From Anaerolinea thermophila UNI-1 (GTDB taxonomy: Bacteria > Chloroflexota > Anaerolineae > Anaerolineales > Anaerolineaceae): 32,000 nt of DNA. Below the pieces are notes generated by a model, which ran no database searches, was not told where the DNA came from, and saw only the letters and a list, made by a program, of their open reading frames with translations. The position numbers and the translations under genes were made by a program. Positions 60-29,344 of the stretch are shown here, one piece after another. Within the stretch, counting starts at the first letter, position 1; every line of letters begins with the position of its first letter. The DNA is taken from positions 3,340,561 to 3,372,560 of the forward strand of contig NC_014960.1 in assembly GCF_000199675.1 (NCBI RefSeq), in the 5' to 3' direction.

Positions 60-833
60 TTGACCCTGCCCGCCCTTGACCTGGAAGAAACCCGCCCCCT
101 GCCTGCCGCTCCCGCCCCGGCAACCGCCCCGCGCCCCTTCACCCTGCCGCAGAAGTGGATGCGTACCGTTCAGGGCATGGCGCTGGCTCTCTTTCTGGTA
201 ATGCTGACCGTGATTACTCTGGGATTTACCGGTGGATGGGCACCCTGGACGCGGGCTTACGCCGCCGAACGCCCCGCCATGGCACTGCTCAAGCCTACCC
301 TCACCCCCACCCACACCCCCACCGCCACCCCCACTGCCACGCCGACCGCCACCCCCACGCCAACTCCCACCGAGACGCCCACGCCCACCCCCACCCACAC
401 TCCCGACCCCACCGACACTCCCGAGCCGACCGATACCCCCGAACCTCAGCGGGACGCACCCGCCCCGCCCATTGAAGCCGATGGACGCTGGATTGACGTG
501 GATCTCTCCGAGCAGAAACTCTACGCCTACGAGGGCGATACGCTGGTCAATTCCTTTATTGTCTCCACCGGTACCTGGCTCCACCCCACCGTGCAGGGAC
601 AGTTCCGCATCTATGTCAAATACCGCTACGCCGATATGTCCGGTCCGGGCTACTACCTGCCCGACGTGCCTTATGTGATGTACTTCTACAAGGGCTACGG
701 CTTGCACGGCACCTACTGGCACAACAACTTCGGCACGCCGATGAGCCACGGATGTGTCAACCTGCGCACCGAGGATGCCGGCTGGCTTTACAACTGGGCA
801 TCGGTGGGAACGCTGGTCAACATCCACGATTGA
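60..833 (+). CDS. L,D-transpeptidase (YkuD fold), membrane-anchored, with Thr/Pro-rich linker
   Basis: 257-aa ORF. The C-terminal YkuD catalytic core is present ([21 protein letters not shown], i.e. His ... Ser-His-Gly-Cys-x-Asn). Hydrophobic anchor [17 protein letters not shown], followed by a TP-repeat linker. TTG at 60 is only the first start-type codon and the frame stays open back to nt 3. The true start may therefore lie upstream of the window or at ATG 159. Confidence 0.85.
294..446 (+). repeat. Low-complexity Thr/Pro (ACN-CCN) microrepeat encoding the linker of the first L,D-transpeptidase
   Basis: Encodes [50 protein letters not shown]. The coding strand is strongly C-rich and the complementary strand carries many G3-G5 runs. 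Confidence 0.9.
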
Positions 834-4320: not shown

Positions 4321-4335
4321 TGAGCCTGTTGAAGG
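4321..4335. repeat. Degenerate inverted copy of the REP-like core (TGAGCCTGTTGAAGG)
   Basis: Compare TGAGCCTGTCGAAGG at 12123-12137. Lies in the convergent intergenic spacer. Confidence 0.35.
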
Positions 4336-7659: not shown

Positions 7660-9027
7660 TCAGGGGGTGTCGTCCACGATGAACGGAATGGCAACGGTGT
7701 ACAGCGCCTGATAGGAAAGGTGCGTGCGCTGGAGAGTTTGCCCGCTCTTGCCCCCAAAGATGTGCAGGTAGTTGCCGTATGTCACCGCCACACCCTGCTC
7801 CCCCAGCGGCGCGGGGGCAGGCTCCAGGGCTTGCCAGAGCCCATCGGCGGGGGTGAACACCCAGTTGGGAAGGTTGCCCTCATCGTTGGATGATATTCCC
7901 CCCAGCAGATAAATGGAGTTAATCAGCCCGACGGCGCTCATCTGCGCGCGGGGAGCGGGCATGGCGGGGAGCGCTTCCCAGACCGTCCCGCCGCCGCTCT
8001 CGCGGGCGGGGTGGTATGCCCATACCTCATCCAGCGGCTGACTGCCGTCGCTCCCGCCGAAAAGCAGGATGCGCCCTTCCACGGCAATTGCCGCGGCAAA
8101 GACGCGCGGCGAGGGCAGAGGGGTGCGCTCTTCCCAGCGGTTGGTTTCGGGGTCGTAGGCATACACGGCGGAGGAAGGGGTTTTGCCGTCCCACCCGCCG
8201 AAGAGGTACAGGTTGCCTTCAAAGGCGGTCAGCGCGTAGCCTGCCAGCGCCTGCGGGAGCGGGGCACGGCTTTGCCAGGAATCGGTAAGCGGGCTGTACA
8301 CTTCCAGCGCGCTGATGGGGCGCTGGGCGGCGGTCATTCCGCCGGGCAGGTAAATCTGCTCGCCCAGCCGCGCCGCCGCAATTTGCGAGACGGCGGTGGG
8401 CTTGCCGCTCAGGGCTTGCCAGGTATCTGTTGCGGGGTCATACGCCAGCGTATCGTTGCTGATGCCGGTCTCGGTCTCGCCGCCAAAGAGGTACAGACGC
8501 TCGTTGAAGGCAATCGCCGCCATGCCGGCGCGGGCTTCGGGCAGTTCTTTGAGGACTGCCCAGCGCGGCGGGGCAACAGGCGTGGTTTGCGTACTGGCGG
8601 GGGTGGGGGTAGATGCCGCCGGGCGGGTCAAGTTCCATACCAGCGCGCCTGCCAGGAGGAGAATGAGCAATGCCGCGCCTGCCAGCGCCCAGCGGTTCAG
8701 CGTCCGCCGCGCGGGGAGAGGGGCTTCCACTTCGCGGGTCAGTGCCGCCACCTGCAGAGGGCTTTCGGGAGGAACTTCTTCTTCGGCGGGGGAGGTCTCA
8801 GGCAGGGAAAAGCCCGGCGGGGTAATGCCGTTGCGGATGGCGTACAGCGTGGCTTCGGTGCGCGAAACCACGCCAATCTTGGCAAAGATGTTGCGCAAAT
8901 GGACTTTGACCGTGTTGGGGCTGATGGACAGTGCCTGAGCGATTTCTTTGTTGGATGCGCCGGTTGCCACCAAACGCAAAATCTCTATCTCGCGTTCGCT
9001 CAGGGGCTCGTTGTTGGGCAACTCCAT
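7660..9027 (-). CDS. Membrane-tethered LuxR/FixJ-type HTH regulator with extracytoplasmic six-bladed Kelch beta-propeller
   Basis: 455 aa. N-terminal LuxR HTH LSEREIEILRLVATGASNKEIAQALSISPNTVKVHLRNIFAKIGV. One TM segment, WALAGAALLILLLAGALVW. Six Kelch-like blades marked by LYLFGG, IYLPGG, LYLFGGWDG, ILLFGGSDG, IYLLGG and LHIFGG. Confidence 0.85.
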   Translation of the reverse strand: MELPNNEPLSEREIEILRLVATGASNKEIAQALSISPNTVKVHLRNIFAKIGVVSRTEATLYAIRNGITPPGFSLPETSPAEEEVPPESPLQVAALTREVEAPLPARRTLNRWALAGAALLILLLAGALVWNLTRPAASTPTPASTQTTPVAPPRWAVLKELPEARAGMAAIAFNERLYLFGGETETGISNDTLAYDPATDTWQALSGKPTAVSQIAAARLGEQIYLPGGMTAAQRPISALEVYSPLTDSWQSRAPLPQALAGYALTAFEGNLYLFGGWDGKTPSSAVYAYDPETNRWEERTPLPSPRVFAAAIAVEGRILLFGGSDGSQPLDEVWAYHPARESGGGTVWEALPAMPAPRAQMSAVGLINSIYLLGGISSNDEGNLPNWVFTPADGLWQALEPAPAPLGEQGVAVTYGNYLHIFGGKSGQTLQRTHLSYQALYTVAIPFIVDDTP

Positions 9028-9093: not shown

Positions 9094-9121
9094 CGCACGG
9101 TTCGACAGGCTCGCCGTGCGG
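9094..9121. repeat. REP-like palindromic unit (core TTCGACAGGCTC in the loop of a 7-bp stem)
   Basis: CGCACGG (9094-9100) / CCGTGCG (9114-9120) flank TTCGACAGGCTCG. The 21-nt unit TTCGACAGGCTCGCCGTGCGG spans 9101-9121. Confidence 0.75.
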
Positions 9122-9178: not shown

Positions 9179-10609
9179 ATGGAGAACCTTCGCTTGTTTT
9201 TTCAGTATAACGAACCCCTTTTTCAGTTCATCTACGGGCTGACCTTTTTCGTTTTGGGGGTTGCCATTGCCCTGCAGGCGCGCTATTCTTCCCGGCTGGA
9301 AATTGCCCGCAGTCTCCGCTGGCTGGCGGCTTTCGGCTTTACGCATGGTTTGTATGTGTGGGGAGAATTATTTGTCCCTGTGCAAGCCTCTTACTTCCCG
9401 CCTCTGTTCATGCAGGGAGTACACTTTCTACACTTGCTTTTGCTTGCCCTGTCTTATGTGTGTCTCTTTGAGTTTGGTTTGGCACTGCTCCGTCCTTTGC
9501 GGATGGGAAACACCCTGCGCGGGCTGGTGGCAGGCTGGCATATCCTCTTCACCCTTTTGATGGTAAGGGCGGCATTTTCCACACCCTTTGACCTGAGGTC
9601 CTTTCATGATCATGTAGAAGCATTGGCAGGGTATATGATTGCCTTTCCCGGCGGGTTGTTTGCCGCTTACGGCTTGCGCGAACAAACTTACCGCCTGATC
9701 GCTCCCCTGGATGCGCCTCAGGTGGTGAGTATGCTGCGCACTGCGGGAATCACTCTGGCGCTGTTTGGCGCTCTGCGCGGATTAATCCCTCCGCCCATTC
9801 AGTTTTTCCCCGGCAGTTGGTTGAATTTGCGCACCTTTGAAGATGCTCTGGGTGTGCCGGTACTGGTTTTTCTTGTTCTGCTGGGCGGCTTTCTGTTGTT
9901 TTCAATGGTACGCGCGCTGGAAGTGTTTCACGTGGAGATGGAGCGCACCATCGAACACATGGAACAACAGCAAATCCTGCAGGCGGAGCGTGAGCGTATT
10001 GCTCGCGAACTGCACGACAATACCCTGCAGATGGCATACACTGCGGGCTTGCTCATCGACTCGGCGCGCAAACTGGCAGACGCCGACAGCCCTATCGCCC
10101 AGCGGCTGGAACGGGCAGTGCAGGCGCTGAACGAGGTCATTGCCGACCTGCGCCGCAACATGCAGGATTTACATTCTCCGCTGGGAGAAAATAACCCCCG
10201 CCGCGCCATTCGTCAACTGGTGGATGATCCGCGCTTCCGCACCCTGGTGGAGATTCATCTGGAAGATACCCTGCCCGAAGAGTGGACGCTCTCCCCGCGT
10301 CATACCGCGCACCTGCTGGCAATTTTGCAGGAAGCGCTCTCCAACGTGGTGCGCCATGCCCGTGCTACTCGCGTAACCCTGCAACTGCGCCAGGACGAAG
10401 CCGGCAACACCCTGCTGACTCTGGAAGACGATGGCGAAGGCATGCCCGCGCAAGTGCGCGAAGGCTACGGACTGCGCAATATGCGCGAGCGCGCCCGCAT
10501 GATGGGCGGCACGCTTGTCCTGAGCAACCGTTCCCCCGAAAAAGGCACTCGCCTGATGCTGATTTTCCCCTCTGATACCCTCTCATCATCGGAAAGGACT
10601 CGGGTATGA
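9179..10609 (+). CDS. Sensor histidine kinase, HisKA_3 (NarX/DegS/LiaS-like) family, polytopic membrane N-terminus
   Basis: H-box RIARELHDNTLQ. N-box LQEALSNVVRHA. G-boxes DDGEGM and GYGLRNMRERARMMGGTL. Six or more TM segments. The track start GTG 9116 lies inside the REP unit, so ATG 9179 (MENLRLFF...) is preferred. Confidence 0.85.
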   Translation: MENLRLFFQYNEPLFQFIYGLTFFVLGVAIALQARYSSRLEIARSLRWLAAFGFTHGLYVWGELFVPVQASYFPPLFMQGVHFLHLLLLALSYVCLFEFGLALLRPLRMGNTLRGLVAGWHILFTLLMVRAAFSTPFDLRSFHDHVEALAGYMIAFPGGLFAAYGLREQTYRLIAPLDAPQVVSMLRTAGITLALFGALRGLIPPPIQFFPGSWLNLRTFEDALGVPVLVFLVLLGGFLLFSMVRALEVFHVEMERTIEHMEQQQILQAERERIARELHDNTLQMAYTAGLLIDSARKLADADSPIAQRLERAVQALNEVIADLRRNMQDLHSPLGENNPRRAIRQLVDDPRFRTLVEIHLEDTLPEEWTLSPRHTAHLLAILQEALSNVVRHARATRVTLQLRQDEAGNTLLTLEDDGEGMPAQVREGYGLRNMRERARMMGGTLVLSNRSPEKGTRLMLIFPSDTLSSSERTRV

Positions 10610-11268
10610 ACCGCATTCGCATTGTCATTGTCGATGATCATGCGCTGGTACGCATGGGACTGACCACCCTGATCTGCGACCGTCCCGATATGCAGGTCGT
10701 GGGCGAAGCCAGCAATCTGACTCAGGCTCTGCGTGTCATTGAGGAAACCCAGCCGCAAATCGTGCTGATGGATATTCGCATGCCCGGCGAAAGCGGCATT
10801 GAAGCCACCCGGCAGATTGTTCAGCGCTTTCCTCAAACCCGTGTCATCATCCTCACTTCCTACTCCGACGATGAACTGGTCATGCGTGCCATTCATGCGG
10901 GCGCATCGGGTTATGTGCTTAAACAAGCCGATAACGATGTGCTTCTGGATGCCATCCAAACCGTTGCGCGCGGCGAATCCTTGCTCGATCCTGCCACCAC
11001 CACGCGCCTGCTCCACTTTGTGCGCGAGATGGAGCGCAAAGCCGAACAAAATGCTTTCCGCGATCTTTCGGAGCGCGAGTTAAGCGTGCTGGCGGAACTG
11101 GCAAAAGGCAAAACCAACGCCGAAATTGGCAGAACTCTGCATCTCAGCGAAAAGACCGTGCGCAATCATGTCAGCGTGATTCTGGAAAAACTGCATCTCT
11201 CCAACCGCGTGGAACTGGCAACCTACGCGGTGGAGCATCACATTTTCGACCTGGTGAAGAGAGATTAA
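10606..11268 (+). CDS. Response regulator, NarL/FixJ family (REC + LuxR HTH)
   Basis: 220 aa. IVIVDDHALVR, phospho-acceptor in VLMDIRMPG, ILTSYSDD, GYVLKQ. C-terminal HTH LSERELSVLAELAKGKTNAEIGRTLHLSEKTVRNHV. ATGA overlap with the kinase stop. Confidence 0.92.
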   Translation: MNRIRIVIVDDHALVRMGLTTLICDRPDMQVVGEASNLTQALRVIEETQPQIVLMDIRMPGESGIEATRQIVQRFPQTRVIILTSYSDDELVMRAIHAGASGYVLKQADNDVLLDAIQTVARGESLLDPATTTRLLHFVREMERKAEQNAFRDLSERELSVLAELAKGKTNAEIGRTLHLSEKTVRNHVSVILEKLHLSNRVELATYAVEHHIFDLVKRD

Positions 11269-12051: not shown

Positions 12052-12140
12052 CGTGCGGTTCGGCAGGCTCACCGTGCGGGGTCGACAGGCTCACCGCACG
12101 GTTCGGCGGGTTGAGCGCGCCCTGAGCCTGTCGAAGGGCG
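12052..12140. repeat. Cluster of REP-like units (two direct 21-nt units plus one inverted core)
   Basis: TTCGGCAGGCTCACCGTGCGG (12059-12079) and GTCGACAGGCTCACCGCACGG (12081-12101). Inverted core TGAGCCTGTCGA (12123-12134) is complementary to TCGACAGGCTCA (12082-12093). Alternative 8-bp stem CCGTGCGG / CCGCACGG. Confidence 0.8.
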
Positions 12141-14256: not shown

Positions 14257-14453
14257 ACCCCTTCGCGCCTTCGTGGTGAGACCAGCACGCAGGTTTCGAC
14301 AGGCTCGGCGAACGCGAACCGCAGGCTGAGTTCGCCGAAGCGTGCAATCGGCTTAGCGAACCCTCTTATCTCCCTTCGCGCGCTTTGCGCCTTCGCGGTG
14401 AGACCAGCACAACGGCTTCGACAGGCTCAGGCTTCGACAGGCTCAGCCGGCGG
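14257..14453. repeat. Two direct composite repeat elements (heptad module + GGTGAGACCAGCAC + REP-like core) in a 355-bp convergent spacer
   Basis: Copy 1 is at 14257-14315 and copy 2 at 14372-14453. Shared string CTTCGYGGTGAGACCAGCAC, then TTCGACAGGCTC (14295, 14417, 14433). Between the copies is a 7-bp stem GGCGAAC/GTTCGCC. Confidence 0.8.
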
Positions 14454-16640: not shown

Positions 16641-16690
16641 GCCTTTCGACAGGCTCACCATTCGGTTCGGCTGGCTCACCGTGCGGTTTG
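16641..16690. repeat. Two tandem REP-like 21-nt units
   Basis: TTCGACAGGCTCACCATTCGG (16645-16665) and TTCGGCTGGCTCACCGTGCGG (16666-16686). They lie between the candidate promoter and the start of the oxidoreductase gene. Confidence 0.8.
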
Positions 16691-22194: not shown

Positions 22195-22241
22195 AAAAGT
22201 AAAACACCCCTAAACGGGGCTATTTTAACCCAAAACTTCCC

Positions 22242-22294: not shown

Positions 22295-24679
22295 TTACCG
22301 ACGCAGACTGTCGCGCCGCAGAGCGTTCAGGGCTTCGCGGTATTCCTGCACATTGGGCGGGTTGAGCGAGACAATCGTCTCCAGCAGGTTAATGGCTTCC
22401 ATCACCTTACCCTCGTCCAGGTAGAGGTTGGCGGCGGCGTCCATCTGCGCCACGCCTTCCTCGATGCGCCCTTCGCGCACCAGCAAATCTGCCAGGCGGC
22501 GGGAAAGGTCCACATTGGGACCAACCTCAGCGAGCAGGTCCTGCAGGAACTGCACGGCTTGAGCGCGCCTGCCGGTGCTTTCCATGAGGTTGATGAACGA
22601 ATCCACCTCGCCCAGGGCGGCGGCAGACTGCCCCATGCGCAGGTTCAACTGCACCAACTGCAGGCGGGTCTGCGGATTATCGGGCTGGATGGTACGGATT
22701 TGCTCGTAAATACGCAGTGCCTGACGGAAATTGAGCCTCTGCATGTCAATATCCGCCACCTTGAGCAGAATCTCCACGCCCCAGGTGCGGTTCTGGCGGG
22801 ACTGCTGGGCAATCTTCAGGGCATTGAGGTAAGTCTGGCGGGCTTTGTCCAGTTCTGCCAGGCGGTAGTAAGCGTCTGCCAGTTCCATGTACTCTTCCAG
22901 GGCTTCATCAATGCGTTCCTGGGTCACCAGCAGTTCAATCAGTTGCTCGCGCACTTCCAAATCCATGGGGTTCATCTGCAGAACGCGACGGTAGAGGCGC
23001 GCCGCACGGGCAACCTCGCCACGCACGGCATACAGTTCAGCCACCACCTGAAACTTACGGCTGGCATCCTCGGTCCGCCCTTCCCGCAACAACAGTTCGC
23101 CCACCTGCTCGTGCAGGGGCAGGTAATGCGGCGCCAACTGCAGGGCGTAAAAGGCTTCTTCCTGCGCCGTGCGCGTCAAGCCCATTTGAGAAAGTTCCCG
23201 CACCCGCGCAATGGCTTCCACCACCTGACTGCCGCGCGTCTCCAGCAAAATCTCCGCCACCGGCGAGGGCGGCGCATCGGGGGCAACTTGCGGCAGGTTC
23301 TGGCGGGCTTTGGCAAGCAAATCGCGCCAGTCGGAACGCATCAGTTGATCGCGTACCTGGATGCACAGGTTTTCCAGGCTCTTCAGGTCTTCCTCACTGG
23401 CAACCGCATCCACCAGCGGTTCGTAAGACTGGCGCAGGGCTTCCTGATGGGCTTCGGGCACCAGCGCCACATCGGCTTGTGCCAGCGCCTGCAGGTAGGC
23501 ACCCGCCGCTTCGGGGTACATCCCCTTGTCCAACAGAATTTTGCCGCGCAAGAGGCTGGACGGCAGAAGATATTCGGGGTGCTTGGCGGCTTCCTGCAGG
23601 TAGCGCAGGGCTTTGTCGCCATCGCGTTCTGCCAGCAGGTAGCCCAAATCGTAGTACAGGGCGGCATGGCGCAAGCCGGCATCAGCGGCGCGTTCCAGTT
23701 CGGCAATGGCATTGCTCACATCGCCCTGCATTTGCGAGTCGATGGCTTGTCCGATGTGCAGCGCCATGCGGGTGCGGTCGCCCGCCATACTGAGCGGACC
23801 GGTCACACCGCGCGCCAGAGCGGCAAGCCCACTGCGCGGCGCCGGTTCGCGCTGTGATTCTTCCACCTGATCAAATAACAGGGATGCCAGTTGTTCCAGA
23901 GCCTTCTGGCGTCCCTCTTCCAGGGGATTCAAGCCCGTGCTTTCGGTTTTCTGCGCAGACTTCCCTTTTTCCTCACCGCGCACCGATGCCATGCGAATCG
24001 GCCCGGTACTGCCTTTGGGGCGGGACGGCGGGGGCAGTAACTGATTGGTTCTCAACATGTGCAGGGCAAAGCGCGCTTCCTGGCTTTCGGGCATCAGGCG
24101 CAGGGCATATTCCACCGATTTAAGCGCGCGGGTCATATCGCCGGTGCGCTGGAAAAGGCTGGCAATGGCAACATACTCGTTGATGGCTTCCATCTTGCGC
24201 CCCATGCGCTCGTACACTGCGGCAAGGCGCTGGCGAGTCGGCAGGTGCTCCGGAAACAGACTGAGCACGTGCACCCAGTCCTCAATGGCTTTGTCCACGT
24301 CGCGGGCGCGCAGATGCAGTTCCGCCGCCTGCAGGCATACCTCGCTGGCTTCCTTGAGTTTGCCCATGCGCTCGTAAATTCGCGTCAATTTCTCGTAGGG
24401 CACGGGGTCGGTAGGGGCAATCTTAGAGGCGCGCTGGTAACACTCCAGCGCGCGCTCGTACTCGCCCAATTCAAAATACGCCAGCCCCAGGCTGGAAAGC
24501 GCCAGGGGACTATCGGGCATCTCATCCAGCGCCTGGGCGTAGTACTGGGCGGCTTTCACCCAGTCCTGGTCCCATGCGGCGGAATGCCCCTGATTCATTG
24601 CCTGTTGGAAAACTGCCTGATTGCCTGCCATATCCTTAAGAATAACATGATTTTGATTCTCCCAACGCGGCTTTGCCAA
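22295..24679 (-). CDS. Tetratricopeptide (TPR) repeat protein
   Basis: 794 aa, with TPR-like 34-residue periodicity throughout (e.g. ALSSLGLAYFELGEYERALECYQRASKIAP). The start is TTG 24679, 24 nt after the polA stop. The alternative is ATG 24631. Confidence 0.85.
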   Translation of the reverse strand: MAKPRWENQNHVILKDMAGNQAVFQQAMNQGHSAAWDQDWVKAAQYYAQALDEMPDSPLALSSLGLAYFELGEYERALECYQRASKIAPTDPVPYEKLTRIYERMGKLKEASEVCLQAAELHLRARDVDKAIEDWVHVLSLFPEHLPTRQRLAAVYERMGRKMEAINEYVAIASLFQRTGDMTRALKSVEYALRLMPESQEARFALHMLRTNQLLPPPSRPKGSTGPIRMASVRGEEKGKSAQKTESTGLNPLEEGRQKALEQLASLLFDQVEESQREPAPRSGLAALARGVTGPLSMAGDRTRMALHIGQAIDSQMQGDVSNAIAELERAADAGLRHAALYYDLGYLLAERDGDKALRYLQEAAKHPEYLLPSSLLRGKILLDKGMYPEAAGAYLQALAQADVALVPEAHQEALRQSYEPLVDAVASEEDLKSLENLCIQVRDQLMRSDWRDLLAKARQNLPQVAPDAPPSPVAEILLETRGSQVVEAIARVRELSQMGLTRTAQEEAFYALQLAPHYLPLHEQVGELLLREGRTEDASRKFQVVAELYAVRGEVARAARLYRRVLQMNPMDLEVREQLIELLVTQERIDEALEEYMELADAYYRLAELDKARQTYLNALKIAQQSRQNRTWGVEILLKVADIDMQRLNFRQALRIYEQIRTIQPDNPQTRLQLVQLNLRMGQSAAALGEVDSFINLMESTGRRAQAVQFLQDLLAEVGPNVDLSRRLADLLVREGRIEEGVAQMDAAANLYLDEGKVMEAINLLETIVSLNPPNVQEYREALNALRRDSLRR

Positions 24680-24703: not shown

Positions 24704-27520
24704 TCATTCCAGAGGCGTCATCTCTCCCCAGTTCTTTCCCCAGCGGGCTTCGGTGGTGAGGGGAATTTGCAGGGGGTAGGCTGTCTCCATGACGTGCTGT
24801 ACCAGTTTTGCCGTCCCGGGCATTTCCTCGCGTGGCACTTCCAGCACCAGTTCATCATGCACCTGCAACAGCAGGCGCGCCCGACTGCCCGCCGCGCGCA
24901 GTGCCTCGGGCAGGCGAATCATCGCCAGTTTGATGATGTCCGCCGCCGTGCCCTGAATGGGGGCATTGATAGCTTCTCGTTCCTCGCGGGCTTTGAGCGC
25001 CGGGTTGGCGGGGTTCTTGAGATTGGGAAAATAGCGGCGGCGTCCCAGCAGGGTTTCCACGTAGCCCTCACGGGCGGCGCGGCGGCGCAGGTCGTCCAGA
25101 AAACGCTTGACGCCGGGGAACTGCTCAAAGTAGGCTTTGACGAAGTTCTCGGCTTCCGCCAGCGTCAGGTCGGCGGAGCGGCTCAACCCGAAGGCGCTCA
25201 TCCCGTAAATCAGCCCGAAGTTGATGGCTTTGGCGTGACGGCGCATCTCGCGCGTCACCGCTTCCAGCGGCACGCCATAAATTGCCGCGGCGGTGGCGGC
25301 GTGAATGTCCTGCCCGGCGCGGAACGCCGCCAGCATGGCTTCGTCATTGGCAACGTGCGCCACAATGCGCAGTTCAATCTGCGAATAGTCCACCGAGAGC
25401 AGGACCCAGCCCTCATCGGCGATGAAGGCGTTGCGCACCTGCCGTCCGAGGTCGGTGCGGGTGGGGATGTTCTGCAAATTGGGGTCGGAAGATGCCAGCC
25501 GCCCGGTCACCGAACCGGTCTGATTGAAGCGGGTGTGCACCCTGCCGGTGCGCGGATTGACCTGCTGAGGCAGGGCGTCCACATAGGTAGATTTGAGTTT
25601 GCTCAACTCGCGGTTTTCGAGGATTAAATCCAGCACCGGATGCCTGCCGCGCAGTTCTTCCAGCACCTCTGCCGAGGTGGAGTACAGCCCGGCGCTGGTC
25701 TTCTTGCGGCGGTCGGGCGGTTCGAGGCGCAATTCCTCAAACAGCACCCGCGATAACTGCTGAGTGGAATTGATGTTGAAGGGGTGTCCCACCAGGGCGT
25801 AAATTTCTTTTTCAATTTCCGCCAGGCGCTGGCTGAGTTCCACGCCCATGCGCTGAAGGAAAGGCACATCCAGCAGGATGCCGTTCCACTCCATGTCCGC
25901 CAGCACCGGCACCAGGGGCATCTCCACGTCCTGGAACAGGCGGGTGACGCCGGCTTTGAGCATGCGCTCTTCCAGAATGGGCTTGAGCCGCAGGGTGATT
26001 TCGGCATCGGCGGCGGCGTAGGGGGCAACCTGCGCAACGGAAACCTGCGCCATGGTGCGCTGATTCTTGCCCGTGCCGATGAGTTCCTCAATGCGGGTCA
26101 TCTGCACGCCCAGGTAGCGCTCCGCCATTTCCTTCAGCCCGAGGGCGCGCGAAGCCGGATCAACCAGCCACTCGGCAAGCAGGGTATCGAACGCCAGTCC
26201 CTGCGCTTCCATGCCCGCCAGACGCAGTGCCAGCAAATCGTACTTGAGGTTTTGTCCCACCTTGGGTTTGCGCGGGTCGCCGAGGAAGGGGGCAAGGGCA
26301 TCGCGGATGCTTTCCAGCGGCAACTGCGGCTCGCCGGTGAGGTGTCCCACCGGCAGGTAGTAGCCCGTGCCGGGTTCTACCGCCAGCGAGATGCCCACCA
26401 GCGCGCCGTTCAGCGGGTCGGTGGAAGTGGTTTCGGTGTCCAGGGCAATCCACTCGGCTTGCGCCAGTTTGGCGCACAACTCCGCCAGCGTTTCGGGGGT
26501 GTTGACGATAACTGTGTTCAGGTCGTGCTGGGGCGGGAGACCCACGCGCACAATTTCTTCGCCGAAGAGGGACAACTGCCCAATGCTGGTCGGCTCCGGG
26601 GGAATGAGCGGTACCTGCTGGGGAGCGCTGGCGGCGGAGATGCCGAAGATTTTCTCCATGCGGGTAATGAGCGAGCGGAACTCCATGCGGCGGAAGAAAT
26701 CCAGCACCTTCTCCACGGGGATGGCATCGGTGCGGGCTTGCGCCAGTTCCAGCGTGATGTGCAGGTCGCGCTTGATGGTCGCCAGTTCCCGGCTCATAAA
26801 CGCCATTTCGCGCCCTTCTTCCAGTTTCTGGCGCACTTTAGCGGGCAGGTCGTCCAGGTGGGCGTAGATGTCTTCCAGATGGGCGTAATCCTTCAGCAGG
26901 GCAAGGGCGGTCTTCTCGCCAATGCCGCGCACGCCGGGGATGTTATCCGAGGGATCGCCTGCCAGGGCTTTGAAATCCACCACCTGATCGGGGCGGATCC
27001 CCAGGTAGGCTTGCACATCTTCCTGACGGACGAAATCCCTGGCTTCGCTGAGTTTACTCCCTGCCAGGTTGACGGCAATGCGCTCGTCCACCAACTGCAA
27101 GAGGTCGCGGTCGCCGGTGATGATCTTGACGCCAAAGCCCTGTTTGACCGCCTGATGGGCAATCGAGGCGATGATGTCGTCGGCTTCGTAGCCGTTCAGT
27201 TCCAGGCGGGGGAAGCCAAAGACGTCCACCAGTTCGCGGATGCGCTCCATCTGCATGCGCAGGTCGTCGGGCATTTTAGCGCGGGTGGCTTTGTACTCGG
27301 AGTAAATCTGGTCGCGGAAGGAATAGCCGCCGTCAAAGGCAACCGCCAGATATTCGGGCTTGTCCTGCTCCAGCAGGCGCAACAGCACGCTGGCAAAACC
27401 GTACACGCCCGCGGTGGGTTCGCCACTGGCAGTGGAAAGGCGCATTCCTGAAGTAGTGAGGGCAAAAAAGGCGCGGTAGGCTAAGGCGTGACCGTCAATC
27501 AAATACAGCACTGGGGGCAT
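24704..27520 (-). CDS. polA: DNA polymerase I (5'-3' exonuclease, 3'-5' exonuclease and polymerase domains)
   Basis: LYLIDGHALAYRAFF (5' nuclease). ALDTETTS (Exo I). Motif A LLSVDYSQIELR, motif B RRHAKAINFGLIYGM, motif C LLLQVHDELVLE. ATG 27520 with GGAG upstream is preferred over TTG 27541. Confidence 0.95.
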   Translation of the reverse strand: MPPVLYLIDGHALAYRAFFALTTSGMRLSTASGEPTAGVYGFASVLLRLLEQDKPEYLAVAFDGGYSFRDQIYSEYKATRAKMPDDLRMQMERIRELVDVFGFPRLELNGYEADDIIASIAHQAVKQGFGVKIITGDRDLLQLVDERIAVNLAGSKLSEARDFVRQEDVQAYLGIRPDQVVDFKALAGDPSDNIPGVRGIGEKTALALLKDYAHLEDIYAHLDDLPAKVRQKLEEGREMAFMSRELATIKRDLHITLELAQARTDAIPVEKVLDFFRRMEFRSLITRMEKIFGISAASAPQQVPLIPPEPTSIGQLSLFGEEIVRVGLPPQHDLNTVIVNTPETLAELCAKLAQAEWIALDTETTSTDPLNGALVGISLAVEPGTGYYLPVGHLTGEPQLPLESIRDALAPFLGDPRKPKVGQNLKYDLLALRLAGMEAQGLAFDTLLAEWLVDPASRALGLKEMAERYLGVQMTRIEELIGTGKNQRTMAQVSVAQVAPYAAADAEITLRLKPILEERMLKAGVTRLFQDVEMPLVPVLADMEWNGILLDVPFLQRMGVELSQRLAEIEKEIYALVGHPFNINSTQQLSRVLFEELRLEPPDRRKKTSAGLYSTSAEVLEELRGRHPVLDLILENRELSKLKSTYVDALPQQVNPRTGRVHTRFNQTGSVTGRLASSDPNLQNIPTRTDLGRQVRNAFIADEGWVLLSVDYSQIELRIVAHVANDEAMLAAFRAGQDIHAATAAAIYGVPLEAVTREMRRHAKAINFGLIYGMSAFGLSRSADLTLAEAENFVKAYFEQFPGVKRFLDDLRRRAAREGYVETLLGRRRYFPNLKNPANPALKAREEREAINAPIQGTAADIIKLAMIRLPEALRAAGSRARLLLQVHDELVLEVPREEMPGTAKLVQHVMETAYPLQIPLTTEARWGKNWGEMTPLE

Positions 27521-27537: not shown

Positions 27538-29190
27538 TCAATGGGATGAATCTGCCGGGGGCTGAGAAGACATCTCCACGGATGAGGAAAGCCGCGGCAG
27601 GGAGGCGGAGGACGAGGGTGGCAGGACGCCCTGGCGGCGGCGAGTCTCTTCGATGTAATCGCGCAGAAGGCGCGGCGAGGGCGGCTGAGGACCGCTGACG
27701 ATGAGGTAGCCGCTTGCCCAGAAATCGCCGGAGGGGTTTTCCTCTGCCAGGGCAGGGAAATGTTCAAAGATGAAAGACGAGGTGCGCTGGCGGATGACGC
27801 GGATGACCGATGCCGGCGCAATGGACGGGCTGACCTGCACCGACCACTGCATGTACTGCGGGCGCACGGCGATGCCTTCCAGACGCCAGCCAAACGCCAG
27901 GCACAACTGCTGTACCCGCTGGCTGACCTGCTCGCCCAGCGCGCCGGTGAGGAAGTGCGAGGGCAGGCGCGGAATCAGCACGCAGGTGTAGAAAATCTGG
28001 CTGAACGAGGTAGAAACCGGTTCGATTTGCTGAATGCTGGTCAAATCGGGCAGAATGGTGGCATGGTTGACCGCCAGTTCCTCTTCCTCCGGGAGCAGGG
28101 CGGGCAGGGTCTCTGCAGTGGCGACCTGGCTGGAAACCGTCCCGGCAGGCGAGGACGCTTCCGCTGGCGGAGCGGGCGCCTCGCTGACCGGCGGGACGGG
28201 CATGGGCGTTTTCGCCGGCGTGGCGGGCAGTTCGGCTTCCACGCGCGGCAGGGAGAGGTCAATCTCCGGCACCCACTCGCCGCCGGGTTGCGGGTCGGGC
28301 GGGGGGACATCGCCAAGCAAATCTGCCAGCGAGAGCAGTTCGGGCAGGGCTTCTTCGCCGGTGTTCTCTTCTTCGGGGAGAGGTTCTTCAGCAGGCGCTA
28401 TGGCGGGCTTTTGCGGGGCAGTTTGGGGTTGCGGCGCGGGGGAGGGCTCCACCGGCGCGTGAGGCACGCCATTCGCCAGCGTGCGGCTCATCTGCAGGGC
28501 TTCGGCGCGGATGCGGCTGAGCGGCGTTTTGAGGGGGTACACCAGTCCCAGCGCCACCTGCGGGGAGACGGCGGTGACGTAGAGGATGCGCTCGCCGAGT
28601 TCCTCGCTCAGGCGGGCAAAGCGCACCACATCACTGGGCTCGGGCATCTCCCAGAGGCGTTGAATCTGGGATTGCAGGGCGTCAACGGCGGGAGTACGCA
28701 CCACCTGCGCGCCATTGCGATGCACAATCATCCCGCCCTCGGCAGTGCTGTTTGCCAGCAGGCGCTCCAGCGCCTGCTCATCCACCCACTCGGGCAGGGA
28801 TTCATCCGGTACGGGGGGCAGGGGAGTTTCCTCGCCATCCAGCCTTGCCAGCAGGTCGAGCAAATCGGGCAGGTAAAAGGGGCGGGAAAGATAGCCATGC
28901 GCAGGAATGTCGCGCACGGTGGGATGCTCCGGGTTGTTTTCGGGGGGAATCAGCACCAGTTTCAAGCCGGGGTGGTCGTGCAACAGCACCGCGCTGATCT
29001 CGGCAAGCGGCAGGTCGGGCAAATCGCAGTCCAGAATGACCACGCGGTAATAGGGATTGATGACCGCGGCGGCGGCTTCGCGGGCGGTACTCACCACGCG
29101 CACCTGATAGCGCCCATCCTCTTCCAGGCTGAGGCGAATCAGTTCACCAAAGGCGGTATGCGGCGTGGCTACCAGTACCGAGACGCTCAT
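27538..29190 (-). CDS. Pseudo-receiver domain protein with Pro-rich linker and C-terminal IS200/IS605 TnpA-like (Y1) domain lacking the HUH histidines
   Basis: 550-aa ORF. aa 1-116 have a receiver-like layout (VLVATPH, VVILDCDLPD, LVLIPP, GYLSRPF). aa 241-375 are P/E/A-rich. aa 396-520 are colinear with TnpA landmarks (details in findings). The stop lies 17 nt before the polA ATG. Confidence 0.85.
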   Translation of the reverse strand: MSVSVLVATPHTAFGELIRLSLEEDGRYQVRVVSTAREAAAAVINPYYRVVILDCDLPDLPLAEISAVLLHDHPGLKLVLIPPENNPEHPTVRDIPAHGYLSRPFYLPDLLDLLARLDGEETPLPPVPDESLPEWVDEQALERLLANSTAEGGMIVHRNGAQVVRTPAVDALQSQIQRLWEMPEPSDVVRFARLSEELGERILYVTAVSPQVALGLVYPLKTPLSRIRAEALQMSRTLANGVPHAPVEPSPAPQPQTAPQKPAIAPAEEPLPEEENTGEEALPELLSLADLLGDVPPPDPQPGGEWVPEIDLSLPRVEAELPATPAKTPMPVPPVSEAPAPPAEASSPAGTVSSQVATAETLPALLPEEEELAVNHATILPDLTSIQQIEPVSTSFSQIFYTCVLIPRLPSHFLTGALGEQVSQRVQQLCLAFGWRLEGIAVRPQYMQWSVQVSPSIAPASVIRVIRQRTSSFIFEHFPALAEENPSGDFWASGYLIVSGPQPPSPRLLRDYIEETRRRQGVLPPSSSASLPRLSSSVEMSSQPPADSSH

Positions 29191-29298
29191 AAGATACTTT
29201 TAGTGTATCACAAAAGCGTCAGAAGGGATTCAGCCCAACGAAGCAGGGGGGCGCCAAGACATGCCCTTCAGCAAGATCAGGACGTGGTTTGCGCTTGC

Positions 29299-29344
29299 CG
29301 AGCCTGTCGAGGCAAGCCTACGGTTCGGCAGGCTCAGGGCGCGG
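29299..29344. repeat. REP-like inverted pair (GAGCCTGTCGA ... TCGGCAGGCTC) including one 21-nt unit
   Basis: GAGCCTGTCGA (29300-29310) pairs with TCGGCAGGCTC (29325-29335): 11 bp with one G-T wobble and a 14-nt loop. The unit TTCGGCAGGCTCAGGGCGCGG spans 29324-29344. Confidence 0.75.

Follow-up and report, generated by a model that had tools for sequence, protein, structure and literature searches.

A Predicted Non-Cleaving Y1 Transposase Domain Fused to a Pseudo-Receiver and a Roadblock Domain, Encoded Next to polA in the Anaerolineae

Introduction

What is the role of a gene that is called a transposase in the databases but lies immediately upstream of polA, the gene for DNA polymerase I (Pol I)? 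This question is raised by a locus of Anaerolinea thermophila UNI-1 (Chloroflexota, class Anaerolineae), contained in a stretch of 32,000 nucleotides (contig NC_014960.1, 3.53 Mb long, positions 3,340,561 to 3,372,560) that is called the window hereafter. The gene in question is an open reading frame (ORF) at positions 27538-29190 on the reverse strand, which is present in the ORF list with an ATG start and 550 codons, as had been claimed earlier from the DNA letters and their translations (the original prediction). Its product is identified by an exact-sequence match as BAJ65061.1 / WP_013561402.1 / UniProt E8N2R1, and is named “transposase” by NCBI and “Response regulatory domain-containing protein” by UniProt.

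As judged from sequence comparison, the gene has been domesticated by its host and is conserved across the Anaerolineae; it is not a transposase or a mobile element. The protein consists, in this order, of a pseudo-receiver, an MglB-like Roadblock domain, an acidic disordered linker with a short motif and a basic C-terminal Y1_Tnp domain. The original prediction had called all four parts (a pseudo-receiver, a Roadblock-like module, a Pro/Glu/Ala linker and a Y1 fold lacking the HUH motif), and all four calls are upheld by profiles and structure comparisons. As for the function, we infer, with a little less than even confidence, that the protein is a non-cleaving nucleic-acid-binding adaptor working with Pol I. 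The positions of all features are collected in Table 1.

Loss of the Catalytic Centre in the Y1 Domain

The C-terminal domain is recognized over aa 396-515 by the Pfam profile Y1_Tnp (PF01797; E = 2.4e-11, 44.2 bits, gathering score 23), and the NCBIfam model transpos_IS200 gives 48.1 bits, which is under its equivalog cut-off of 55. In a phmmer search against PDB, aa 401-521 align with the Sulfolobus IS200 transposases 2ec2 and 2f4f. Furthermore, an AlphaFold model of aa 380-526, made from a 25-sequence alignment, has a predicted local distance difference test score (pLDDT) of 87.6, and its top 29 Foldseek matches in PDB are all TnpA structures of the IS200/IS605 type (ISDra2, IS608, Sulfolobus and DR_0177), with E = 4.6e-10 to 1.7e-7 and template modelling (TM) scores of 0.63-0.70. 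Both the Pfam profile and the AlphaFold/Foldseek comparison thus agree with the Y1_Tnp fold that had been proposed for the C-terminus.

In the alignment with 2ec2, “rpqYmQwsv” faces “mpdHiHlfv” and “lrdYIEEt” faces “ikkYIEEq”. The alignment with 2ec2 and 2f4f confirms the earlier reading that the HUH histidines are replaced by Y446-M-Q448, and a further change, which that reading did not contain, is T516 in place of the metal-ligand Gln. This Gln, on the helix that carries the Tyr, is a metal ligand in IS608 TnpA.

The replacements are not peculiar to A. thermophila. When 240 family sequences were aligned to the Y1-domain profile, the first HUH His position was Tyr in 210 and His in 12, the second was Gln in 214 and His in 5, and the Gln position, four residues past the Tyr, was Thr in 215 and Ser in 14, while the nucleophile position 512 was Tyr in 129 and Phe in 110. 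H-L-H is read in a single sequence, which has Phe and Thr at the other two positions, and the full catalytic set (HUH, Tyr and Gln) was found in 0 of the 240. The HUH motif and the Gln ligand of Y1 transposases are thus missing from WP_013561402.1 and across the family, and the Tyr is not conserved across the family. The catalytic Tyr had been said to be retained; this is correct for the A. thermophila protein, which has Y512, but Phe in 110 of the 240 sequences means that no nucleophile is required there. Since the hydroxyl appears to be dispensable, the view that the domain is non-cleaving, already put forward in the original prediction, becomes firmer: the HUH His and the Gln ligand are replaced across the 240 members and the Tyr is often Phe. 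On these alignments the Y1 domain is catalytically dead family-wide, with its metal site (His, His, Gln) lost.

The same domain is the most conserved part of the protein, with a mean column identity of 71% versus 35% for the Roadblock domain, and with 50-75% identity across orthologous loci. No variation is seen at the structural Trp, W491, and little or none at R517, R519, Q520 and G521. In addition, the domain is basic, with an isoelectric point (pI) of 9.3 in A. thermophila and a family median of 9.4. Behind it, the A. thermophila protein has a 29-residue Ser/Pro-rich tail, VLPPSSSASLPRLSSSVEMSSQPPADSSH (aa 522-550, 27541-27627(-)); most family members are without this tail and end within a few residues of the invariant RRRQG.

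Family Distribution and Inheritance

A protein search gave 293 homologues, the best 120 of which are all 480-776 aa long, all have PF01797 and, where named, are called “transposase” or “RayT/CheY-like”. In a scan that took a single genome for each species, at least 440 species genomes had a relative, and the best 80 of these relatives are almost all labelled Anaerolineae, Anaerolineales or Chloroflexota; the full library gave 495 clusters at 50% identity (E <= 1e-30). With a C-terminal profile, Y1 lies at the C-terminus in all of the best 150 library matches, and no other architecture is among them. When plasmids and phages were searched, matches were confined to the last 22% of the protein; they are to genuine tnpA at about 30% identity, and a full-length homologue was not found there.

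The locus comparisons described below cover the 80 best orthologous loci, 1.34 Mb in total and about 20 kb per genome. Across these loci, the identity to the A. thermophila protein is 31-46%, except for L001, a locus of an Anaerolinea genome, with 79%. In one metagenome-assembled genome (MAG), H6_556, two copies of the gene lie on separate contigs (L049 and L080), each followed by polA, which suggests a mixed bin and not paralogues. Moreover, a 3-kb contig (L047) of a Firmicutes-labelled MAG, “Syntrophothermus sp.”, carries the gene and the start of polA, and the label is probably a binning error.

On these comparisons the gene is shown to be under strong purifying selection and to be inherited vertically, on the chromosome. 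The loss of the catalytic motifs and the “transposase” annotation might be taken for signs of a decaying insertion sequence (IS) remnant or a pseudogene, fused by chance to a response-regulator gene. This explanation is refuted by conservation, and we give it practically no credence: hundreds of species have the full-length architecture, every domain contains residues that do not vary, the synteny is fixed and the promoter is conserved. The context of an IS, namely hairpin ends, tnpB and a variable location, is also not what is seen, because a promoter lies directly upstream, polA lies 17 nt downstream and the position is fixed. No IS ends were found around the gene, and domain scans of the window genes gave no second transposase and no tnpB.

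Linkage to polA and the TPR Gene

The gene is separated from polA, which encodes a full-length Pol I, by 17 nt: the TGA stop is followed by atttatcGGAGcgtctc and the ATG of polA, with GGAG inside the gap. This junction sequence confirms the spacing given in the original prediction. The third gene of the block encodes a TPR-repeat protein, the start codon of which is uncertain (TTG at 24679 or ATG at 24631). The gap of 24 nt between polA and this gene that had been given earlier holds with the TTG start, but alignments of the TPR orthologues begin at about residue 17, which would point to the ATG start and a gap of 72 nt.

The block is conserved well beyond the genus. In 73 of the 78 loci, from different species, that have enough downstream DNA to be assessed, polA is the next gene downstream on the same strand, with a median gap of 51 nt and a gap of 150 nt or less in 62 of the 73; an orthologue of the TPR protein (794 aa) follows polA in 62 loci. 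The identity of polA is 52-74% across the loci and 93% at L001. Upstream of the gene or downstream of the TPR gene, conserved genes were found only at the level of subclades, in at most 21 of the 80 loci, and L001, with its 79% identical orthologue, has different upstream genes. Because the adjacency is kept at high divergence while the surroundings change, it is good evidence of a functional or operonic link, and the polA linkage, to which attention had been drawn in the original prediction, is strongly supported.

A consensus scan of the window gave no convincing terminator between the genes of the block; inside the genes, terminator-like matches are not in excess of those in shuffled sequence (11 found, 7.6 expected). 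A terminator-like hairpin with a T-run after the TPR gene, which is a pattern match only, is a candidate for the end of the transcription unit. In the other loci, gaps to polA of 120 nt or more are mostly without an extended -10-like site.

Five of the 78 loci have no polA downstream. In four of them, the convergent downstream neighbour is the DNA-repair gene radA (zinc ribbon, RecA-like ATPase and Lon_C), with an Rrf2 regulator between the two genes in L057. Three of these four loci belong to close relatives, so they represent at most two independent events.

Pol I itself has a consensus β-clamp-binding motif, QLSLF, at aa 315-319 (26564-26578(-)), in the linker that joins the 5'-nuclease and the 3'-5' exonuclease domains, and 60 of 64 orthologous polA genes have Q(L/M/I)x(L/M)F at the corresponding position. 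The clamp-binding consensus reportedly goes back to Dalrymple et al. in 2001. The motif would fit a replisome-tethered enzyme.

A Conserved Promoter Element and the Possibility of a Regulator

The gene carries its own conserved upstream element, GTGATACACT, which is of the extended -10 type and lies 11 nt before the ATG. The sequence TGATACACT is found in 55 of the 80 loci, almost only upstream of the start codon of this gene, and TGATA[ACG]ACT lies 5-21 nt (mostly 6-11 nt) before the start codon in 75 of the 80. Elsewhere in the 1.34 Mb, TGATA[ACG]ACT has 12 copies on both strands together, none of them before a long ORF. Alignments anchored at the element read CTTGCC, a 17-nt spacer ending in TG, one base, TA(C/A)ACT and then ATG or GTG. 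Loci without polA downstream have the element before the gene as well. In A. thermophila there is no Shine-Dalgarno sequence after the element, and a Shine-Dalgarno-like sequence precedes the start in 1 of 78 loci.

As the element is so near to the start codon, the mRNA is probably leaderless or nearly so, transcribed from an extended -10 promoter of the sigma-70 type, and the arrangement suggests that the gene heads a leaderless operon with polA and the TPR gene. Two other explanations of the element were dropped: it does not match a DnaA box (TTATCCACA) by eye, and as an N-terminal extension or mini-ORF it would read GTG ATA CAC TAA in frame, which stops after three codons.

The conservation of the element exceeds what a promoter alone seems to need, and this may reflect promoter strength or a bound regulator, possibly the protein itself. 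Hence one alternative is an atypical response-regulator transcription factor, the Y1 domain of which binds TGATA(C/A)ACT at its own promoter, possibly as the single strand of the open complex, and autoregulates the polA/TPR operon. An N-terminal receiver with a C-terminal nucleic-acid-binding domain is the classic layout of response regulators, the gene is the first in the operon, a gene-specific element overlaps its -10 region in 75 of the 80 loci and persists at the five polA-less loci, and a conserved domain beside a conserved site is a parsimonious pairing. However, the element is fully explained as the extended -10 of a leaderless mRNA with a CTTGCC -35 box 17 nt upstream in most loci, and there is no second copy or palindrome that would suggest an operator. 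In addition, known TnpA proteins bind hairpins of single-stranded DNA, whereas the hairpin potential of the element is 3 bp at most, and no regulon is visible, since the 12 other copies in the 1.34 Mb do not precede genes. We regard such a regulator as unlikely, though worth keeping in mind.

The N-Terminal Half and the Possibility of a GTPase Scaffold

The first domain is a divergent receiver. With the Pfam profile Response_reg (PF00072) it reaches 22.3 bits, under the cut-off of 30.2, while a genuine response regulator in the window (10606-11268) reaches 104.5 bits. The single sequence matches the receiver structure 3crn (phmmer against PDB, E = 1e-5), and with a 30-sequence family profile 22 of 30 PDB matches are receiver structures, the best with E = 4.6e-7. 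In the alignment with 3crn, A8-T9-P10 face D-D-D, D54 faces the acceptor Asp, P82 faces the Thr and R103 faces the Lys. Column counts over 121 family sequences gave the same picture: the Mg-binding acidic pair is replaced (T9 in 108 of 115 and P10 in 109 of 115), the acceptor Asp54 is present without exception (116 of 116), Pro82 occupies the Thr/Ser position in 117 of 118, and the Lys position (R103) is Arg in 94 and Lys in 15. The receiver fold is thus present and the phosphorylation quintet is incomplete. In receivers, phosphotransfer relies on the Mg-binding acidic pair. Because this pair is absent, phosphotransfer at the domain is unlikely.

The middle domain had been compared weakly with Roadblock/LC7 in the original prediction, and this guess was right. 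A family profile of aa 118-245 gave eight PDB matches, all of them MglB (best E = 2e-4), over the last strands and helix. In the AlphaFold model (pLDDT 84.9), a helix is followed by two strands, a second helix, three strands and a last helix, and 38 Foldseek matches in PDB at E <= 1e-3 are all of the Roadblock fold, led by MglB (6hjm, 1j3w and 3t1s; best E = 3.5e-5). The modelled domain therefore has the Roadblock alpha/beta fold. Pfam Robl_LC7 matched neither WP_013561402.1 nor 31 family members, and the scattered Pfam matches of the middle domain to TetR_C_38 and PAS_4 in a few members were taken as chance.

The linker is rich in Pro, Ala and Glu (23%, 15% and 15%, respectively, of aa 241-375) and is probably disordered. 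Its net charge is -23 in A. thermophila, with a family median of -28, and its length in the family is 104-391 aa. Within it lies a short motif with the family consensus (I/F)NLAxLLGxVPSPDP, followed 5-25 aa on by GWVPE, in which L288, L291, L292, P296, P298, D299 and P300 are nearly invariant. As a candidate clamp-binding site this motif was rejected, because by eye it does not fit the QLxLF consensus.

A second alternative is a small-GTPase scaffold like MglB, MglC and RomR, in which the Roadblock dimer and the receiver bind an MglA-type GTPase, Y1 serves only for dimerisation or localisation, and the proximity to polA reflects co-expression only. The middle domain is indeed most MglB-like, and a long TPR scaffold is co-encoded. 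Fusions of Response_reg to Robl_LC7 have been noted in passing (PMC4316618), and RomR of Myxococcus has a similar layout, in which a receiver and a disordered region are combined with an acidic helix for binding to the Roadblock protein MglC (PMC10329633). Moreover, a GTPase of MglA group 5, ANT_06780, is encoded at another place in the A. thermophila genome (supplement of PMC4316618). On the other hand, it is Y1, and not Roadblock, that is most conserved and, moreover, basic; no GTPase gene was found in the window or among the conserved neighbours; and the class-wide polA adjacency, with radA in the exceptions, is left unexplained. We therefore hold this scaffold to be improbable.

REP-Like Repeats and the Possibility of a RAYT

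The original prediction had connected the gene with REP-like palindromes in the window and, through them, with the RAYTs. The palindromes are real: TTCGRCAGGCTC, with one mismatch allowed, has 12 copies in the window versus 0.45 expected, with flanks such as CGTGCGG / CCGTGCGG. They are located at 4322-4333, 9101-9112, 12059-12135, 14295-14444, 16645-16677 and 29300-29335, in or beside intergenic regions, some of them in direct arrays with a period of 16-22 and others as inverted pairs, which fold as stable hairpins. One inverted pair, GAGCCTGTCGAG ... TTCGGCAGGCTC, stands directly after the stop codon of a DUF2905 gene and 110 nt upstream of the ATG, and this hairpin may terminate the DUF2905 gene.

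A RAYT-like enzyme, or a non-cleaving binder, dedicated to the TTCGRCAGGCTC repeats would account for this pair just upstream of the gene, for repeats that are mostly intergenic and hairpin-forming, and for the databases that label relatives “RayT”. But the catalytic residues are absent, and downstream of the gene, in the 17 nt that separate it from polA, there is no repeat. Exact copies of TTCGRCAGGCTC are also missing from the 80 orthologous loci (about 20 kb per genome), L001 included, although the Y1 domain is well conserved there. Flanking REPs and a co-occurring repeat family, that is, the REPtron of RAYTs, were thus not found within about 20 kb per genome, and neither was the combination of HUH and Tyr that RAYTs retain. 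The fold is also nearer to TnpA of IS200 (E about 1e-10) than to the RAYT structure 4er8, which ranks below the TnpA set in Foldseek (E = 1.5e-4). In the window there is no RAYT gene besides the IS200-type Y1 of the dead-domain gene, and no other IS200 gene. Since Y1 is the most conserved part of the protein, its ligand would be one shared class-wide and not a set of lineage-specific repeats. Within the span compared in each genome, the fold call stands and the proposed repeat system falls; a dedication to the repeats is largely refuted and we consider it very improbable.

Proposed Function

The reading that we favour, though with less than even confidence, is the adaptor for Pol I named above. 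TnpA of IS608 and ISDra2 holds hairpins of single-stranded DNA. The Y1 domain would keep a nucleic-acid-binding surface of the TnpA type without cutting, and would act as a non-cleaving anchor on single-stranded or structured DNA. This anchor may recruit or position Pol I, and probably the TPR scaffold too, in lagging-strand processing or repair. The receiver and the Roadblock domain, which are typical dimerisation and partner-binding modules, would form a regulatory head, and the acidic linker may cover the basic Y1 domain, or a docking motif for a partner may lie in it. As TnpA, MglB and many receivers form dimers, the protein probably does so too.

Several points weigh against this adaptor. 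Conserved gene order is evidence of co-expression or a functional link and not of physical contact. The five loci without polA downstream nevertheless keep the gene, so the protein can work without being co-transcribed with polA. A β-clamp-binding motif was looked for in WP_013561402.1 and was not recognizable. Furthermore, Roadblock and receiver domains would be just as much at home in small-GTPase signalling as in DNA transactions, and since the Y1 fold resembles RRM, RNA is a possible ligand.

A more complete form of the adaptor would be a dead IS200-type Y1 domain exapted as a class-wide accessory factor of Pol I, with an anchor on single-stranded DNA or hairpins, a pseudo-receiver/Roadblock head that is possibly read by a small GTPase, and a TPR scaffold. 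We offer this only as a doubtful proposal. If it is true, a previously unrecognized component of lagging-strand maturation or repair in the Anaerolineae would be at hand, and it would be, to our knowledge, the first non-catalytic domestication of a Y1 HUH transposase.

Neighbouring Genes and Other Features of the Window

The other genes of the window are ordinary chromosomal genes, such as those for L,D-transpeptidases, an aminotransferase, guanylate kinase, a two-component pair, oxidoreductases and an M19 dipeptidase. The DUF2905 gene (77 aa) falls under the length cut-off of the ORF list, which is 80 aa. An Rfam scan of the whole window gave nothing at gathering thresholds. PADLOC gave no defence-system match for WP_013561402.1 and only a sub-threshold TPR match for its neighbour, and a defence role of the protein was dropped; a Pfam match of the protein to Atg11_middle was taken as chance.

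Two further genes of the window have unusual features. In an L,D-transpeptidase (YkuD) gene (ORF 60-833), an imperfect ACCCCC-type tandem repeat at 297-442(+), with periods of 12, 18 and 42, presumably encodes a Thr/Pro-rich linker. In a 455-aa protein encoded at 7660-9027(-), an N-terminal LuxR-type (GerE) helix-turn-helix is joined to a Kelch beta-propeller, which is an unusual architecture for a regulator.

Table 1. Features of the locus in window coordinates, and positions of radA in the orthologous loci named
Feature	Position	Strand	Basis
Whole gene, 550 aa + stop	27538..29190	-	ATG start; ORF list
Pseudo-receiver (REC-like), aa 1-117	28840..29190	-	3crn alignment, family profile, column counts
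Roadblock/LC7 domain, MglB type, aa ~138-241	28468..28779	-	Family profile, AlphaFold (AF2) model, Foldseek
Acidic Pro/Ala/Glu-rich linker, probably disordered, aa 242-392	28015..28467	-	Composition, charge and length statistics
Linker short motif, aa 285-309, LLSLADLLGDVPPPDP...EWVPE	28264..28338	-	Alignment
Y1_Tnp (IS200/IS605 TnpA-like) domain, aa 396-521	27628..28005	-	PF01797, AlphaFold (AF2) model, Foldseek
Degenerate HUH motif, Y446-M447-Q448	27847..27855	-	Alignment to 2ec2, 2f4f
Former catalytic helix: Y512 (nucleophile position), T516 (metal-ligand Gln position)	27643..27657	-	Alignment and family counts
GTGATACACT, extended -10-type element, 11 nt before ATG	29202..29211	-	Locus alignments
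polA, full-length DNA polymerase I (5'-nuclease, 3'-5' exonuclease, polymerase)	24704..27520	-	Pfam; junction sequence
TPR-repeat protein, ~780-794 aa, third gene of block	22295..24679	-	Pfam TPR families
Terminator-like hairpin and T-run after TPR gene (candidate)	22206..22220	-	Consensus scan, pattern match only
Inverted REP-like pair (GAGCCTGTCGAG ... TTCGGCAGGCTC)	29300..29335	.	Directly after DUF2905 stop, 110 nt upstream of ATG
DUF2905 small membrane-protein gene, 77 aa	29346-29579	-	Between a 101-aa ORF and the 27538-29190 gene
radA, locus L057	13851-15266	-	
radA, locus L061	11707-13125	-	
radA, locus L063	6142-7560	-	
radA, locus L071	11699-12796	-	

Significance

In hundreds of Anaerolineae genomes this gene bears the name “transposase”, “IS200/IS605 family transposase” or “RayT”. 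On the evidence given above none of these names applies, so that the annotation can be corrected and the gene left out of counts of mobile elements. It seems that only the DNA-binding surface of a transposase domain was the reason for its recruitment here. Because the gene is constantly paired with polA and a large TPR protein, there is a concrete and testable lead to Pol I accessory factors in the Anaerolineae, and the class-wide, gene-specific promoter element is a handle for transcript mapping and binding tests. Moreover, the family bears on how Y1 proteins are surveyed. The relatives of Y1 transposases have been divided into three classes and 12 subclasses, with C-terminal extensions such as a DnaA-like helix-turn-helix, and sequences without HUH and Tyr were left out of that survey as probably non-functional (PMC6006769, Quentin et al. 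2018). The family described here shows that such relatives can be under strong selection.

Comparison with Known Systems

A literature search on the topics of Y1_Tnp with response regulators, RAYT/HUH proteins and Roadblock with IS200, in an incomplete literature set, brought up neither this architecture nor the polA linkage. The text of PMC6006769 contains no receiver or CheY fusion, and Chloroflexi appear there only in a figure legend.

The protein shares with TnpA of IS200/IS605 the fold and the order of landmarks, gives its best sequence and structure matches there, and keeps W491 and the C-terminal helix. It differs from TnpA in having neither HUH nor the Gln ligand, in the Tyr/Phe at the nucleophile position, in the approximately 395 residues of other domains that precede Y1, and in its fixed synteny without tnpB or IS ends. 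Like the RAYTs (TnpAREP; Escherichia coli YafM, PDB 4er8), it is a host-retained Y1-domain protein outside an IS, with a REP-like family in the same genome. However, RAYTs keep HUH and Tyr and are flanked by their own REPs (PMC6006769), whereas WP_013561402.1 has lost catalysis, has no flanking REPs and shows a weak structural match of its Y1 domain to 4er8.

The N-terminal half recalls other systems. With MglB, MglC and RomR the protein has in common an MglB-like middle domain and a layout of receiver, disordered and acidic regions as in RomR, but it has no adjoining GTPase gene, and a C-terminal Y1 domain and a polA context are not described for those proteins. Atypical, phosphorylation-independent receivers such as FrzS, HP1043 and ChxR likewise have a receiver fold with an incomplete active-site quintet; in WP_013561402.1, by contrast, the acceptor Asp is invariant while the Mg pair, the Thr and mostly the Lys are replaced, and the output domain is not a helix-turn-helix. 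The gene is, then, a combination of known kinds, namely a domesticated Y1 transposase domain, a pseudo-receiver and a Roadblock fusion, and not a new category.

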